A stretch of DNA of 64,000 nucleotides from a virus: the IMG/VR virus record IMGVR_UViG_3300008108_004834, positions 1 through 64,000 of that record, one strand, 5' to 3'. A model generated the notes under the pieces. It was not told the origin of the DNA, did not search any database, and saw only the letters and a program-made list of their open reading frames with translations. Positions 96 through 22,687 of the stretch are shown piece after piece. Position 1 is the stretch's first letter. Each line of letters starts with the position of its first letter. The translations under genes and the position numbers were made by a program.

Positions 96-98
96 CTT

Positions 99-171
99 GT
101 CCGTGTAGCCCAATGGAAGAGGCAATAGACTAAGGATCTATTTGTTGGAGGTTCGATTCCTCTCACGGACA
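99..171 (+). tRNA. tRNA-Leu(AAG), short variable loop
   Basis: GTCCGTG/CACGGAC acceptor, ATAGA-CT-AAG-GA-TCTAT, TTCGATT T-loop, A73. Confidence 0.9.
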
Positions 172-200
172 TTGACTTTCTTGAGTATCTCTGGTATTCT
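172..200 (+). promoter_or_regulatory. sigma70-like promoter
   Basis: TTGACT-17nt-TATTCT upstream of tRNA-Leu(TAG). Confidence 0.55.
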
Positions 201-211
201 AAAAGTCTTAT

Positions 212-284
212 GGGAGTGTAGCCCAACGGCAGAGGCGGTAGGCTTAGAACCTATACAGTGGAGGTTCAAATCCTCTCACTCCTA
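212..284 (+). tRNA. tRNA-Leu(TAG), short variable loop
   Basis: GGGAGTG/CACTCCT acceptor, GTAGG-CT-TAG-AA-CCTAT. Confidence 0.9.
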
Positions 285-285
285 T

Positions 286-342
286 TGCCAGTTTCTTGAC
301 TGGCACAAGGCACTTGACTCTTCGGTTCAAATGCCTTATATT
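286..342 (+). promoter_or_regulatory. 20-bp dyad plus sigma70-like promoter of HNH gene
   Basis: TGCCAGTT-TCTT-GACTGGCA then TTGACT-17nt-TATATT. Confidence 0.55.
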
Positions 343-384
343 AGATGAGTGGTTGAGTTCTATTAAACGCATTTATTATGTAAA

Positions 385-804
385 ATGGTCATTTGTAAAT
401 CCTGCGGTAAAGAAGTTCCACAACACCCCAAAAAAGGTGGAAGAGCAAAACTTTATTGTGACGAAACTTGCCGCCAAAAGTGGCGTTACAGAAATGATCC
501 ATCTATTATGAATAGAAACACTTACACTGAACAAAAAGAAAGAGCATATTCCAACAAATGGAAAACACTTCAATATAAAGGTGGTAAGTGCCAACAATGT
601 GGCGAAGATAGACCAGCAACTTTATGCTTTCATCATAGAGATCCTTCTCAAAAAGAACTAAAACTTGATGGAAGATCTTTTGCAAATAGAAAATGGGAAA
701 CTATTAAAGAAGAAGTAGATAAATGCGATCTTCTTTGCCATAACTGTCATCATATATTACATTATGGCAACAGTTGGGGAGAGTTTCTACAAACGCTGGT
801 TTAG
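385..804 (+). CDS. HNH endonuclease (putative homing endonuclease) with N-terminal Zn finger
   Basis: CKSC...YCDETC; CQQC...FHHRDP...CDLLCHNCH motifs. Confidence 0.8.
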   Translation: MVICKSCGKEVPQHPKKGGRAKLYCDETCRQKWRYRNDPSIMNRNTYTEQKERAYSNKWKTLQYKGGKCQQCGEDRPATLCFHHRDPSQKELKLDGRSFANRKWETIKEEVDKCDLLCHNCHHILHYGNSWGEFLQTLV

Positions 805-867
805 CTCTCTGGCGAAAGCACTGCCCTCATAAGGCAAGATAGGTCGGTTCGATCCCGACAACCAGCA
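795..867 (+). tRNA. tRNA-Met(CAT) (elongator Met or Ile2)
   Basis: GCTGGTT/AACCAGC acceptor, CT-CAT-AA loop, TTCGATC. Confidence 0.85.
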
Positions 868-868
868 C

Positions 869-897
869 TTGACAATCTCAGTGATATATACTATGAT
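869..897 (+). promoter_or_regulatory. sigma70-like promoter
   Basis: TTGACA-17nt-TATGAT. Confidence 0.65.
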
Positions 898-910
898 TGT
901 CTTGGTTTAA

Positions 911-983
911 GGGAGTGTAGCCCAGCGGAAGAGGCAGTGGACTTAAAATCCATACAGGGTGGGTTCGAATCCCACCACTCCTA
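911..983 (+). tRNA. tRNA-Leu(TAA), short variable loop
   Basis: GGGAGTG/CACTCCT, GTGGA-CT-TAA-AA-TCCAT. Confidence 0.9.
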
Positions 984-987
984 CTTT

Positions 988-1061
988 GCCGAAGTAATCC
1001 AATTGGTAGAGGTGTCCGACTCAAAATCGGAATGTTGTGGGTTCGAATCCCACCTTCGGTA
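988..1061 (+). tRNA. tRNA-Leu(CAA), short variable loop
   Basis: GCCGAAG/CTTCGGT, TCCGA-CT-CAA-AA-TCGGA. Confidence 0.9.
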
Positions 1062-1083
1062 TTGGAGAGTAATCTCCACAATT

Positions 1084-1171
1084 GCCAGTCAGAACAGGTG
1101 TTCAGAGGAGTCTTATAAACTCTTTCCGCCAGATTAGCGGCTTTGGGAGGGTTCGATACCCTCGGCTGGTA
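1084..1171 (+). tRNA. non-canonical tRNA-Ile(TAT) with long variable arm and minimal D-arm
   Basis: GCCAGTC/GGCTGGT, GAAC-AGGT-GTTC, AGGAGT-CT-TAT-AA-ACTCTT, V-arm CCGC/GCGG, GAGGG-TTCGATA-CCCTC. Confidence 0.8.
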
Positions 1172-1280
1172 TTCCATCGGCAGATGGAAAGGCGAATTTG
1201 AGTGATGCATCACTTAGACAAGCCTGGAACAATTATCTAAGGTTCGATTCCCTGGCTCTGGTGAGTTAGATAAAAGTTCC
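1172..1280 (+). ncRNA. unassigned structured RNA: three stems, the last capped by T-loop then D-loop-like elements
   Basis: 1172-78/1183-89; 1190-93/1222-25 and 1197-1205/1210-18; 1226-30/1276-80 and 1233-40/1266-73 enclosing GG-TTCGATT-CC and TGGCTC-TGGT-GAG. Confidence 0.55.
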
Positions 1281-1290
1281 TGAATTTCTT

Positions 1291-1363
1291 ATCAGAGTAG
1301 CTCAATTGGTAGAGCAGCGGTCTCCAAAACTGAAGGTTGCAGGTTCAAGTCCTGTCTCTGGTG
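1291..1363 (+). tRNA. tRNA-Trp(CCA)
   Basis: cloverleaf, CT-CCA-AA, G73. Confidence 0.9.
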
Positions 1364-1367
1364 CCTT

Positions 1368-1439
1368 GCCCTGGTAACTCAGTGGAAGAGTGCTTCGCTA
1401 CGAACGAAGAAGACGGGGGTTCGAATCCCTCTCAGGGTG
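1368..1439 (+). tRNA. tRNA-Arg(ACG)
   Basis: CTTCG-CT-ACG-AA-CGAAG. Confidence 0.9.
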
Positions 1440-1473
1440 CTTGACTTTGAAAAAAGTCATATATATAAAGAAT

Positions 1474-1558
1474 GGAAGGGCAATCCGATTGGCGACGGAA
1501 CCTGTCTTGAAAACAGTTGAGTGTAAAAGCCTTGGGGGTTCGACTCCCCCTCCTTCCG
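1474..1558 (+). tRNA. tRNA-Ser(TGA)
   Basis: GGAAGGG/TCCTTCC, CT-TGA-AA, long variable region, G73. Confidence 0.9.
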
Positions 1559-1577
1559 TTGCTCCTTGTGAGCATAT

Positions 1578-1651
1578 GCCTCCGTAGCTCAGCTGGATAG
1601 AGCAGGGTTTTTGTAAAGCTCAGGTCGCAAGTTCAAGTCTTGTCGGGGGCT
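1578..1651 (+). tRNA. tRNA-Thr(TGT)
   Basis: GCCTCCG/CGGGGGC, TT-TGT-AA. Confidence 0.9.
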
Positions 1652-1679
1652 TGACAATCTAAGATGAATGTCTTATGAT
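1651..1679 (+). promoter_or_regulatory. sigma70-like promoter
   Basis: TTGACA-17nt-TATGAT. Confidence 0.65.
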
Positions 1680-1687
1680 TGTTAGAT

Positions 1688-1759
1688 GCGGATTTAATTC
1701 AGTGGTAGAATGGCTGCCTTCCAAGCAGTTCGTCAGGGGTTCGAATCCCCTAATCCGCT
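1688..1759 (+). tRNA. tRNA-Gly(TCC)
   Basis: GCGGATT/AATCCGC, CT-TCC-AA, U73. Confidence 0.9.
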
Positions 1760-1781
1760 CTTGGAGTTTAACTCCAATTTA

Positions 1782-1856
1782 TGTGGGGAAGTGTAGTGGT
1801 TGCACAGGAGTCTCATAAGCTCCAGGTTGGTGGTTCGATTCCGCCCCCCGCCACCA
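1782..1856 (+). tRNA. tRNA-Met(CAT), initiator-like 1:72 mismatch, encoded CCA
   Basis: TGTGGGG/CCCCGCC-A-CCA, GGAGT-CT-CAT-AA-GCTCC. Confidence 0.8.
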
Positions 1857-1860
1857 ACAT

Positions 1861-1933
1861 TCCCTTATAGCTCAATTGGCAGAGCACGGAGCTGTTAACT
1901 CTGGGGTTCCTGGTTCGAGTCCAGGTGGGGGAG
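1861..1933 (+). tRNA. tRNA-Asn(GTT)
   Basis: TCCCTTA/TGGGGGA, CT-GTT-AA, G73. Confidence 0.9.
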
Positions 1934-1949
1934 TCGGTAGAAATACCAA

Positions 1950-2021
1950 CCTCTGGTAGTCTATTGGTAAGGACAGGCAGACAATGCACTTGGAAACTAG
2001 GTTCGATTCCTAGACAGGGGA
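1950..2021 (+). ncRNA. tRNA-like element with aberrant anticodon arm
   Basis: acceptor CCTCTG/CAGGGG, D-arm GTCT/GGAC, T-arm CTAGG-TTCGATT-CCTAG; anticodon arm only GCA-GACAA-TGC. Confidence 0.6.
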
Positions 2022-2024
2022 AAT

Positions 2025-2096
2025 GGGCGATTAACTCAGCGGTAGAGTGCCTCCTTTACACGGAGATGGTCACTGGTTCGAATCCAGTATCGCCCA
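2025..2096 (+). tRNA. tRNA-Val(TAC)
   Basis: GGGCGAT/ATCGCCC, TT-TAC-AC. Confidence 0.9.
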
Positions 2097-2100
2097 CTTA

Positions 2101-2108
2101 TATAAATA
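2101..2108 (+). promoter_or_regulatory. T4-type late promoter
   Basis: TATAAATA 20 nt upstream of dps. Confidence 0.7.
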
Positions 2109-2127
2109 CTTCAAAAAAAGAAGTATA

Positions 2128-2562
2128 ATGGAAAAACTGTATAAATTACTTAGTGATGTTCAGTCATCACTTTTTGTTTTGTTTCATAAAACTTGGGTAT
2201 TCCATTGGAATGTGGTTGGGGAAGATTTCACTCAACTACATCAACTCTTTGGTGGTCAATACGAAACAATGTTTGAAGAGATTGATCGTCTCTCTGAACA
2301 TATGAGATACTTAAATATTAAACCTCTGAGTTCCCTTTCAAGAATGCTTGAAGTAACTCAGATTCAAGAAGCAGCAAGTTCAACTACATCAGATTCTATG
2401 ATTACTGAACTTTTAGAGAATAATAATAAACTTTGTGAATTGTTGTCTGATATTTCAGAAGAAGCAGAATCTCAAAAGTCTTATGCAACTGCGAATCTTG
2501 TTCAAGACTTGATGGAATCTCACGGAAAATTTATTTGGCAATTAAGATCACATTTACAATGA
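2128..2562 (+). CDS. dps: Dps/ferritin-like DNA protection protein
   Basis: KTWVFHWNVVGEDFTQLHQLF...EEIDRLSEH Dps signature; start moved to ATG 2128 because the upstream part is tRNA-Val. Confidence 0.9.
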   Translation: MEKLYKLLSDVQSSLFVLFHKTWVFHWNVVGEDFTQLHQLFGGQYETMFEEIDRLSEHMRYLNIKPLSSLSRMLEVTQIQEAASSTTSDSMITELLENNNKLCELLSDISEEAESQKSYATANLVQDLMESHGKFIWQLRSHLQ

Positions 2563-2575
2563 AAGGATTAGTAAA

Positions 2576-2827
2576 ATGATTTCAATAAGATGCAAAGATT
2601 GCAATAAAGAATTATCAGGAAATAATACAAAGATTGCTTCCTGTGGTTGCCCGAATATGGCAACAATTAATGGAGATAAAATCTCTGCGGTTGATTTGTC
2701 TCGTATTGTAATGTTAAATTCACTTCAGACAAAAGCAAAATCTTCAGTTCTCACAAATGATGACATTATGTGGCAAGAACAACGTCGCCAACGTAAAGTA
2801 AAGAGATTAGATTTTGAAGTTCGTTGA
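2576..2827 (+). CDS. conserved cyanophage hypothetical (Zn-binding CxxC/CxC)
   Basis: ORF with RBS; CKDC...CGCPN. Confidence 0.65.
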   Translation: MISIRCKDCNKELSGNNTKIASCGCPNMATINGDKISAVDLSRIVMLNSLQTKAKSSVLTNDDIMWQEQRRQRKVKRLDFEVR

Positions 2828-2969
2828 GAACTTTTAGAATCCAATATTTGTAGGTCTTTTTTGGTAATTAATGATACCAATACTTTGTTAATGTTATAGA
2901 ATAAACATAAAATATTAACGTCTTGGTATTGGATATTATTATATAATAGTAATCTATCTAAAAAATCAA

Positions 2970-3119
2970 ATGGACCAACATACTTACGATAATTGGGTCC
3001 GTATTAAAGAGACTTTTGAAAAGTCTGGAAATACCAATAATATGTTTTATAAGAGAGCGTGTGAGATTATAAAAACTAAAAGAGACCCATTGGCAAAATT
3101 TCTTGGAGATGAAAAGTGA
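2970..3119 (+). CDS. small hypothetical protein
   Basis: MDQHTYDNWVRIKETFEKSG..., read from sequence; coupled to next ORF. Confidence 0.55.
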   Translation: MDQHTYDNWVRIKETFEKSGNTNNMFYKRACEIIKTKRDPLAKFLGDEK

Positions 3120-3319
3120 CGAAAACACAAGATGAATTGATTACTCGTTTTGAAGTTCAGGAGATGATTGATGCAGCAATACGAAGACATAACCGCAATG
3201 CTTCTATCATTAGTATGTGCGTCGGTTGGGTGGTGCTTGCTCTATTTGCTGAGGGACTATTAAGACTTATTGGTGTTATTCCACCACTATTACCCTGGCT
3301 CAAAATTACTTTAAACTAA
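3116..3319 (+). CDS. small membrane protein
   Basis: hydrophobic C-terminal segment. Confidence 0.6.
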   Translation: MTKTQDELITRFEVQEMIDAAIRRHNRNASIISMCVGWVVLALFAEGLLRLIGVIPPLLPWLKITLN

Positions 3320-3620
3320 TGGTTCACATTACAGAAGAAGACATAAAAGATCTTTTGCAAAGAGTATTCTTCAAAAAAATGGAAGAACTCTTTGAAGAAC
3401 CATCAACATACGAGGACGAAGAAGATGTTTAAAACAGTCTTGACAGTAGCAGTCATATATACTACAATTATTGGGTTATGGATCATCACATATCCGCAAT
3501 GATTTTTCGCATCGTAGAAGCATTAGCAGCAAATCCATTTTTCCTTTTTCTTTGTGGATTTGGATTGACAATTGTTCCTTTTCTTGGTATTATGTACATA
3601 CATTCAAAAGAAACAGACTC

Positions 3621-3694
3621 CGGGCATTAGCGCAGTTTGGTAGCGCGTTCCGTTTGGGGCGGAAAGGTCATAAGTTCAAATCTTATATGCCCGA
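3621..3694 (+). tRNA. tRNA-Pro(TGG)
   Basis: CGGGCAT/ATGCCCG, TT-TGG-GG. Confidence 0.9.
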
Positions 3695-3711
3695 CTCATA
3701 AAACTTACTTT

Positions 3712-21490: not shown

Positions 21491-21498
21491 AATAAATA
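21491..21498 (+). promoter_or_regulatory. late promoter of lysin gene
   Basis: AATAAATA right after a terminator. Confidence 0.6.
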
Positions 21499-21521: not shown

Positions 21522-22217
21522 ATGAAAGTAGATCTGCATAATTTCTTTAAGCATTATGATGAAAACAACCCAAATCATATTGCTTCAGTAGAAAAACTGG
21601 AAGAAGCACTTGCAAATAAGCAACCTGAATTACTTGAAGACATTGCAGACTGGGTTATCACCTATAGAAAGAAACCTTCTGTTCCTGGAATTCTAAACGT
21701 TCCTTTCTACCCACAAACAGATAATTATAGGGATGCTCAACGAACCTGTAATTCATCTGCTTGTGCTATGTGTCTAGAGTATTTTAAACCAGGCACTTTA
21801 AAAGGGGTAAAAGGAGATGATACCTACATTCAAAAGGTATTCTCAGTTGGTGATACAACAGATCATTCGGTTCAAACCAGTGTTCTCAATTCTTATGGGA
21901 TTAAGTCTGGGTTTAAGTATAATCTTGGGTTTTCTGATCTTGATCGTGAGCTTGCTGCTGGGAGACCCGTTGTTATCGGTATCTTGCATCGCGGTACTTT
22001 ATCTGCTCCTACTGGTGGTCATATGCTCGTAGTGATTGGAAAGAAAGGTGATGATTATGTTGTTAATGACCCTTATGGATCTTTGAATGATGATTACACT
22101 GGCCCAGTGACAAATGGCAAAGGTGCTGTGTATAAGAGATCTGATCTTGAGTATCGTTGGTTGGAACGCGCAAAAGATAAGACCGGTTGGGGCAGAATCT
22201 TTGATGCAAAAAAGTAG
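21522..22217 (+). CDS. C39-like cysteine peptidase (lysin N-part; zero-frame product)
   Basis: LNVPFYPQTDN, RTCNSSACAM, GGHMLVVIG, VNDPYG. Confidence 0.85.
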   Translation: MKVDLHNFFKHYDENNPNHIASVEKLEEALANKQPELLEDIADWVITYRKKPSVPGILNVPFYPQTDNYRDAQRTCNSSACAMCLEYFKPGTLKGVKGDDTYIQKVFSVGDTTDHSVQTSVLNSYGIKSGFKYNLGFSDLDRELAAGRPVVIGILHRGTLSAPTGGHMLVVIGKKGDDYVVNDPYGSLNDDYTGPVTNGKGAVYKRSDLEYRWLERAKDKTGWGRIFDAKK

Positions 22218-22687
22218 AAAGTTCTATTCCGCAAGTAGGAATAGAACTCATCAAAAAATATGAACAATGTAAACTTGCAGTATATCCAGATCCCAAAACT
22301 AAGGGAAAACCATACACTGTTGGTTGGGGAAGTACTCGTAAGAAAGATGGAAGTCCCTTTAAATTGGGAGAAAGGATTACACGACAAGAAGCAGATGAGT
22401 TATTTGATTGGCAGATTCAAAATGAATTCCTTCCGTCACTTTCAAAAATTCCATATTGGGAGGAAATGAATGACAATCAAAGAGGGGCTTTACTTTGCTT
22501 TGCTTACAATCTTGGTGCAGATTTCTATGGTAGTCCTTACTTTACGACACTTACAAGGGTCTTGAAAAATAAAGAGTGGAATAAGGTTCCTGATACACTT
22601 TGTCTTTATAGAGATCCCGGAACAGATGTAGAAGAGGGATTGCTAAGAAGAAGAAAGGAAGAAGGTGCTTTATGGGCCAAAAAATAA
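22205..22687 (+). CDS. GH24 lysozyme domain in the -1 frame (no ATG/GTG/TTG ahead of the catalytic motif)
   Basis: open from 22205: KKVESSIPQVGIELIKKYEQCKLAVYPDPKTKGKPYTVGWGST...FAYNLG...GLLRRRKEE; E-x8-D and T motif lie upstream of the TTG at 22364. Confidence 0.85.
   Translation, partial: CKKVESSIPQVGIELIKKYEQCKLAVYPDPKTKGKPYTVGWGSTRKKDGSPFKLGERITRQEADELFDWQIQNEFLPSLSKIPYWEEMNDNQRGALLCFAYNLGADFYGSPYFTTLTRVLKNKEWNKVPDTLCLYRDPGTDVEEGLLRRRKEEGALWAKK
22208..22248 (+). promoter_or_regulatory. candidate programmed -1 frameshift signal
   Basis: A AAA AAG heptamer 22208-14, 5-nt spacer, perfect 11-bp stem 22220-30/22238-48. Confidence 0.75.

Follow-up and report, generated by a model that had tools for sequence, protein, structure and literature searches.

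Among the motifs that send bacterial ribosomes into the -1 frame, A_AAA_AAG and H_HHU_UUY rank with the most efficient (PMC4066793). The first is the shift site of E. coli dnaX, where it stands a few nucleotides upstream of a stem-loop and gives rise to two nested products, tau and gamma, that share their N-terminal part. Some bacteria have a 'reversed' dnaX, described in a recoding review (PMC5009743), in which the 0-frame stop directly follows the shift site and the long product is obtained through the frameshift. The subject of this article is a peptidase-lysozyme locus that is probably of the same kind, found in a 64,000-nucleotide (nt) stretch of viral DNA (positions 1 to 64,000 of IMG/VR record IMGVR_UViG_3300008108_004834; hereafter the window). 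It has the A_AAA_AAG and the stem-loop of dnaX and would give nested products as dnaX does, and its layout, a stop at the shift site and a long form that would depend on the shift, is that of the reversed variants (PMC5009743). It differs from dnaX, which encodes a clamp-loader subunit and has an upstream Shine-Dalgarno stimulator, in encoding a phage cell-wall hydrolase for use in a cyanobacterial host.

A second parallel comes from the IS3 family of insertion sequences (IS911, IS150, IS3). There too the upstream open reading frame (ORF), OrfA, has A_AAA_AAG close to its end, a structure follows on the 3' side, and the catalytic domain is made mainly as the fusion OrfAB. The structure in IS3 elements, however, is a three-way junction or a pseudoknot, and the products are a regulator and a transposase, whereas the window has a simple hairpin, a stop codon adjoining the shift site, and two enzyme activities.

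I propose to read the locus as a cassette for programmed -1 ribosomal frameshifting within the lysin gene of a cyanomyovirus, and the comparison of related sequences makes this reading highly probable. The source virus is a T4-like cyanophage whose relatives are Kyanoviridae. Its record is a viral contig of 79.8 kilobases (kb), and the phage has been detected in lake and freshwater metagenomes from several studies.

The peptidase-lysozyme junction of the window

The two frames meet at the 3' end of the peptidase ORF, which reads GCA (22206-08) AAA AAG TAG (Table 1). After a TGA at 22202-04 the -1 frame stays open from 22205 to 22687, a run of 160 codons in which ATG, GTG and TTG occur once in all, as TTG 22364 (codon 54). 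The catalytic glutamate of the lysozyme is codon 20, in an E-x8-D...T pattern within KKYEQCKLAVYPD...YTVGWG. Initiation at a TTG 34 codons past that residue is therefore unlikely to yield an active enzyme. The start-less stretch of the -1 frame includes the peptide VESSIPQVGIELIK. Joining residues 1-231 of the peptidase to the -1 frame gives a conceptual fusion of 388 amino acids (aa), the long product. The first-pass annotation of this DNA had described the in-phase heptamer ahead of the stop, a perfect 11-bp stem 5 nt past the heptamer, a complete lysozyme in the -1 frame with its catalytic segment upstream of the only standard start, the TGA that closes the frame, and products of 231 and 388 aa. 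All of these are there to be read in the sequence, and the frameshift it proposed gains support from a conserved heptamer and stop, a covarying hairpin and a collinear natural fusion.

Table 1. Features of the peptidase-lysozyme locus, in window coordinates
Feature	Position	Strand	Basis
0-frame ORF, peptidase, 231 aa, short product	21522..22217	+	ORF listing
Slippery heptamer A_AAA_AAG, in phase with the 0-frame ORF	22208..22214	+	sequence and conservation
0-frame stop TAG, adjoining the heptamer	22215..22217	+	sequence
Hairpin, 11-bp stem, 7-nt loop, 5-nt spacer, putative stimulator	22220..22248	+	folding and covariation
-1 frame after the slip: linker VESSIPQ and complete GH24 lysozyme, stop TAA 22685-87	22214..22687	+	
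TTG, sole canonical start codon of the lysozyme frame	22364..22366	+	
T4-type late-promoter-like motif AATAAATA, 30 nt 5' of the ATG	21491..21498	+	motif; putative promoter role

In the lysozyme frame, residues 17-153 match PF00959 with 66.9 bits (cut-off 22.3) along the full profile, positions 1-125 of 125, and the frame carries the Glu-x8-Asp-x5-Thr catalytic pattern of GH24. Solved lysozymes of the P22 type (e.g. 2anv) align with their residue ~5 at residue 9 of the query, so the lysozyme domain begins right at the junction, within ~8 codons. The 79.8-kb record has no other PF00959 match; in the complete genomes of S-PM2 and S-CAM7 the only match is likewise the frameshift-linked ORF. Across lineages the lysozyme ORF is unbroken at 55-78% identity.

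The peptidase ORF encodes a papain-like cysteine peptidase of the C39_2 type (residues 58-185; PF13529, 45.6 bits against a cut-off of 24), whose Cys76, His167 and Asp183 do not vary among 16 relatives. A search of PDB sequences with it gave no match at an expectation value (E) <= 0.1. The AlphaFold2 model of the protein (predicted local distance difference test, pLDDT, 77.8) has as its top Foldseek matches the C39-like structures 3erv and 6mpz, with probability 1.0 and template modelling scores of ~0.5-0.7; other papain-like cysteine peptidases are matched as well, and further down a pseudomurein endoisopeptidase. The protein is presumably a peptidase of peptidoglycan stem peptides, and in many cyanophages of all three morphotypes its domain is labelled endolysin or lysozyme. 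At its N-terminus, ~residues 1-55 (window 21522-21686) form a small helical domain of ~50 aa, with no match in Pfam, that carries the motif DLHNFFK.YD...H...A...L...W...YR. Further copies of this domain lie at L004:2276-2440, L005:2234-2400 and L064:2190-2330 among the loci compared below. As a module it is a candidate for cell-wall binding or for association.

One may ask whether the frame break is real. A homopolymer indel might split one fusion ORF, or the lysozyme might be a dead remnant, and it is true that some relatives have in-frame fusions and that the junction of phage ACG-2014f differs from one of the L010 type by what appears to be a single base. The first-pass annotation had noted that a seventh A would turn the locus into one continuous ORF. 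Contigs assembled independently from four runs in four studies all have A6, none has A7, and they show 0 differences and 0 gaps against the window (they span 21938-22500, one of them only 22115-22442; two of the runs are possibly the source sample itself, and rare variants are invisible in contigs). A6 is therefore no assembly slip of this contig. The same can be said of S-PM2, which was sequenced twice and has an identical junction in the original and the re-sequenced genome records. The same frame break occurs at 76 loci from many metagenomes, with the lysozyme ORF intact and conserved, and random errors are not expected to produce a conserved stop and a hairpin. The probability of artefact or decay is close to negligible.

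Other contigs from the same metagenomes (runs X1, X3 and X7) match the window as far as ~22218, that is, through the heptamer and stop, and then continue into other types of linker and stem, e.g. GCCAACTAAT. The junction (22170-22230) has the appearance of a boundary at which co-occurring phages recombine or form mosaics.

Conservation of the shift site and the hairpin

The junction was compared over 110 loci with a full peptidase gene, drawn from the window, GenBank phages and IMG/VR contigs (the best 80 of 344 relatives). Frameshift junctions with A_AAA_AAG are found at 76 of them (50 distinct coding sequences, CDSs) and frameshift junctions with T_TTT_TTT at 3. ATGA-coupled pairs of genes account for 12 loci, in-frame fusions for 9, separate genes for 2, and a permuted fusion, lysozyme before peptidase, for 1 (S-CREM1); 7 were left without an assigned type. 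An outcome in which all relatives have fusions or starts of their own, which the first-pass annotation had allowed for, is thus not what is seen. S-PM2 shares the layout of the window exactly: its peptidase ends ...GAT GCA AAA AAG TAA, and the -1 frame goes on into a lysozyme that has no start codon. GenBank gives for this phage only a 72-aa 'putative lysin' (p157), begun at an internal ATG and without the catalytic glutamate. In most lineages, in fact, the first canonical start lies past that residue.

The final two lysine codons of the peptidase are AAA AAG in 50 of 50 distinct frameshift-type CDSs. Lysine codons are not otherwise so constrained: eleven other conserved lysine columns sum to 272 AAA vs 254 AAG. 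The codon before them is GCA, GTA, ACA or ATA, encoding Ala, Val, Thr or Ile, with A as its third base in 50/50 against a background of 33%. Fixation at the level of nucleotides, while the amino acid varies, is what one expects of a slippery heptamer. At all A_AAA_AAG frameshift-type loci the 0-frame stop comes 0 nt after the heptamer, as in most, or else 3 nt after it.

A run of identical nucleotides might also cause RNA polymerase to slip, adding or dropping a base in A6 (or in the T8 of S-CAM7, described below) so that some mRNAs encode the fusion in a single frame. A/T runs are known sites of such slippage, according to PMC5009743 and PMC4066793. In bacteria, however, the process is described as efficient at runs of ~9 (PMC5009743), and the A6 is short and never longer in the 50 distinct CDSs. 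The run, moreover, is always in the X_XXY_YYZ phase, and a hairpin is kept at the spacing of ribosomal frameshift sites; polymerase slippage needs neither. I consider transcriptional slippage very improbable as the general explanation; at the S-CAM7 T8 it is harder to exclude.

In the window the hairpin stem is formed by AGTTCTATTCC (22220-30) and GGAATAGAACT (22238-48), 11 perfect pairs closing the loop GCAAGTA (22231-37). Its free energy of folding (dG) is -15.2 kcal/mol, with z = -5.9 vs shuffles. The 5' arm lies in the linker and the 3' arm over the first codons of the lysozyme domain. Of the distinct junctions, 39 out of 40 form a hairpin, with a median dG of -14.9 kcal/mol and a mean z of -3.4. 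Its main helix has 8-14 bp, and in 31 of the 39 it starts 4-8 nt past the heptamer. Conservation of heptamer, stop and stem, on which the first-pass reading depended, is therefore what the homologous loci display, down to compensatory changes in the stem.

The stems themselves are specific to lineages and unrelated in sequence: AGTTCTATTCC/GGAATAGAACT, GACATCACA/TGTGGTGTC, GCCAACTAAC/GTTGGTTGGC and CCCACTAC/GTAGTGGG. Since lineages differ both in stem sequence and in register, RNAalifold found no single consensus structure over 36 distinct junctions, and covariation was analysed family by family. In family A2 (an alignment of 15 sequences) 11 pairs are formed with 99.4% of cells paired, and there are 10 double-change cells, 3 of the 11 pairs having compensatory changes. 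None of 500 shuffles scored as high, and slid controls were 28-50% paired. Family A3 has 9 pairs, 96.6% paired, and compensatory pairs are present in families A2, A3 and A4. As a further control, z-scores tell frameshift-type junctions (median -2.9, n=45) apart from in-frame junctions (median 0.0, n=8), which fold no more than expected. Raw dG fails to separate the two classes, owing to the higher GC content of the in-frame marine clade.

A pseudoknot between the loop (GCAAGT, 22231-22236) and an ACTTGC ~40 nt on (~22277-22282) was considered and set aside: in the closest relatives, which are of the L023 type, the loop is GAAAGAA and finds no partner, and the match is probably due to chance.

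Could the hairpin serve something unrelated to recoding? Read from the other strand, hairpin and complement of the A-run resemble an intrinsic terminator for downstream antisense genes. A scan does flag minus-strand positions 22249-22219, with TCTACTTTTT after them, and past the lysin the window, S-PM2 and S-SRM01 all have small ORFs on the minus strand. But the T-run is interrupted and 5-6 nt away from the stem, the site is ~440 nt within the lysozyme gene and distant from the ends of minus-strand genes, and the scan found a total of 2 sites vs 1.2 expected by chance. A terminator would also leave unexplained why the heptamer is in phase, why a stop adjoins it, and why there is a T_TTT_TTT variant, whose complement is an A-run. 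I find this explanation extremely improbable.

Natural fusions, a second heptamer and independent starts

If the -1 frame is read as a continuation of the peptidase, then the protein so conceived ought to be recognisable, and it is. The 388-aa conceptual product and the protein that ACG-2014f encodes in one ORF are collinear over their whole length, junction included (57% identity, E 5e-165), and ACG-2014f together with 8 contigs make up the single-ORF fusions collinear with it. ACG-2014f itself (NC_026927, gp211; L006:1995-2040) has an in-phase A_AAA_AAG within its in-frame fusion, and 5 nt on a GC-rich stem, GGAGGG/CCCTCC. Its -1 frame closes after one codon (AAA AAA GTC TGA). With the long form in the 0 frame and a short peptidase in the -1 frame, this is a layout like that of dnaX tau/gamma, in the mirror sense. 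The heptamer may be a relic, as the eight other in-frame fusions have none in phase.

A different heptamer is present in S-CAM7 (NC_031927, L087:1880-1960) and two metagenome relatives (L092 and L093, 98% and 88% identical to it). Here the peptidase ends GTT TTT TTT CCA CAG TAG, with T_TTT_TTT in phase within a T8, the stop 6 nt after the heptamer, and a start-less lysozyme in the -1 frame. U_UUU_UUU falls within the H_HHU_UUY class that is efficient in E. coli (PMC4066793). Directly past the stop is a bulged hairpin of 11 bp, different from the others and kept via G-U changes. In the peptidase tree the three form one strongly supported group within the clade of in-frame fusions, a position that points to an independent origin of the S-CAM7-type cassette. 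As in S-PM2, the GenBank annotation of S-CAM7 has only a fragment, a 90-aa 'lysin' without the catalytic glutamate.

Where the lysozyme has a start of its own, it has something else besides. At 13 of 14 such loci (11 ATGA-coupled pairs, DSL-LC02 and DSL-LC03; the exception is S-SRM01) it carries its own ~50-aa N-terminal domain. That domain and the one on the peptidase are related by profile comparison (hhalign probability 96.9%, E 1.7e-10). It is this comparison, aided by DSL-LC02 and DSL-LC03, that convinces; BLAST between the two domains gives a weak match (E 0.07). The near-constant presence of the copy argues that a bare lysozyme domain is not normally a functional unit, and by the same token argues against independent initiation at frameshift-type loci, where the lysozyme has no such copy.

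Independent initiation is nevertheless the rival to be taken most seriously. By this account the lysozyme is translated separately, through re-initiation or a de novo start at a non-canonical ATT, ATA or ATC near 22226-22252, and two proteins are made with no fusion. The window, S-PM2 and S-SRM01 have in common an Ile codon ATT in an I-P motif, stop and start overlap as ATGA, GTGA or TTGA in some relatives, and the lysis gene of phage MS2 is a precedent for termination-reinitiation (work cited in PMC5009743). Yet no start codon, canonical or otherwise, is conserved between the stop and the catalytic glutamate across lineages. Separate translation explains neither the fixation of A_AAA_AAG at the nucleotide level nor the T_TTT_TTT variant. 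The covarying hairpin is left unexplained too, and would occlude a start there. Own-start lysozymes, moreover, carry the N-terminal domain, S-SRM01 excepted. I judge separate translation to be improbable.

Several observations weigh against a frameshift cassette and should be set beside those that favour it. S-SRM01 keeps the heptamer and yet its lysozyme, without an N-terminal domain, has its own ATG in an ATGA overlap; it is also the lone heptamer junction without a hairpin. Coupled initiation is possible at L014 and L015, with a GTGA overlap at the stop, and at L010 and L017, with TTGA. The ATGA-coupled class also folds somewhat above expectation (z ~ -2.3). A TGGGG lies ~15 nt 5' of the heptamer, where it codes for an invariant GWG, so that selection on RNA and on protein are inseparable and a Shine-Dalgarno-like stimulator cannot be separated out. 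Finally, the loci are related by descent, and the counts given above are not counts of independent events. With all of this taken into account, the frameshift cassette is still the reading I prefer.

Three side observations concern the wider set of loci. In S-CREM1 (L003:1436-2617) the permuted order, lysozyme then peptidase, is encoded in a single ORF. In S-N03 (L089:1183-2451) the peptidase is joined to another C-terminal domain, which gives no match to the GH24 query. L034 and L070, both from metagenome 3300010354, have the peptidase gene and no lysozyme match in the 400-1400 nt downstream.

Proposed mechanism and known systems

The sequence of events in a frameshift cassette would be as follows. 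Ribosomes translate the peptidase ORF, making the small N-terminal domain and the C39_2 peptidase. When they come to A_AAA_AAG, the hairpin 5 nt ahead would stand at the mRNA entrance and the 0-frame stop would be next in the A site. A fraction of the ribosomes would terminate there and release the 231-aa peptidase. The rest would slip back by one, tRNA-Lys re-pairing from AAA/AAG to AAA/AAA, and would go on to read GTA GAA... to the end of the 388-aa peptidase-lysozyme. The slip itself is thus placed, presumably, on the ribosome. The lysozyme, with neither a start codon nor an N-terminal domain of its own, would be made only as a fusion. Where a single host tRNA-Lys(UUU) decodes AAG, shiftiness is high. 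The window has a cluster of 14 tRNA genes at 98-3695 (Leu x4, Met x2, Trp, Arg, Ser, Thr, Gly, Asn, Val, Pro), and there is no tRNA-Lys in that cluster.

The gene had been called late in the first pass. What speaks for this is the ATAAATA 30 nt upstream of the ATG. Among 68 distinct upstream regions, 28 have the motif within their last 80 nt, against a background of 0.03 per 80 nt, and 21 have it at -29/-30. Late expression is best taken as a suggestion. The peroxiredoxin gene that precedes the peptidase ORF ends in a terminator-like hairpin.

What might a phage gain from such a device? Both products presumably act on peptidoglycan at lysis, and the ratio of short to long form presumably matters, in which case a fixed ratio would be a means to control lysis. 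There is a hint that making both forms is itself selected: S-CAM7 appears to have re-invented the arrangement with another heptamer, ACG-2014f has the mirrored dnaX-like layout, and own-start lysozymes almost always have their copies of the N-terminal domain. It is conceivable, though I would call it doubtful, that the frameshift sets the stoichiometry of a heteromeric lysin whose short and long forms associate via their shared N-terminal domain, or that it couples the strength or timing of lysis to the translational state of the host. Such coupling could work, for example, through the modification or supply of tRNA-Lys in the infected cyanobacterium.

Host lysis by T4-like cyanophages is poorly known, and no spanins are recognisable in them (PMC6139136). 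A lysin with two isoforms and two activities would be a concrete entry point to it. The gene models of two reference phages can be corrected as well, p157 of S-PM2 (72 aa) and the lysin of S-CAM7 (90 aa) being fragments of those genomes' only GH24 matches. And nature has provided a series, from frameshifts at two heptamers through in-frame and permuted fusions to coupled genes with a duplicated N-terminal domain, that may serve as a comparative system for asking why a fixed ratio of short to long form would be selected.

The mechanism is textbook, of the dnaX/IS3 type. In full-text searches of the literature no report of a programmed frameshift in a phage lysin was found, and endolysins are not mentioned in the excerpt of the recoding review (PMC5009743). 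The 'lysins known to contain a frameshift' cited in PRFect (PMC10885494) trace to phi-vML3, which according to PMC3111421 has overlapping genes for a lysin and a holin-like protein, not a frameshift fusion. The nearest report, and the sole one found with such a link, is a prediction for Alteromonas virus vB_AspP-H4/4, in which a slippery sequence links an endolysin-annotated ORF to the ORF downstream (genes 39 and 40; PMC5658483). The likeness ends there: the prediction is a single sentence of a genome announcement, without an analysis of conservation, the virus is an unrelated podophage, and the downstream ORF is an internal virion protein.

That one lysin locus may give two related polypeptides, and that lysins may be heteromeric, has precedents in LysA of phage Ms6, with its Lysin384 and Lysin241 (PMC3111421), and in the multi-subunit PlyC. 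In those cases the two forms come from an internal in-frame start or from two genes, and the shared part is C-terminal, whereas for the window I propose recoding, and the shared part is N-terminal.

The tail-assembly chaperones G and GT are the remaining comparison, a conserved -1 frameshift in double-stranded DNA phages that yields a short and a long form, as would the lysin cassette. The chaperone frameshift sets the ratio of short to long product and is often missed by annotation. It differs in serving tail assembly; in the window the product is a lysis enzyme, and the extension is a complete catalytic domain. With the cyanophage lysin, cell-wall hydrolases would join the few functions for which phages use programmed frameshifting.

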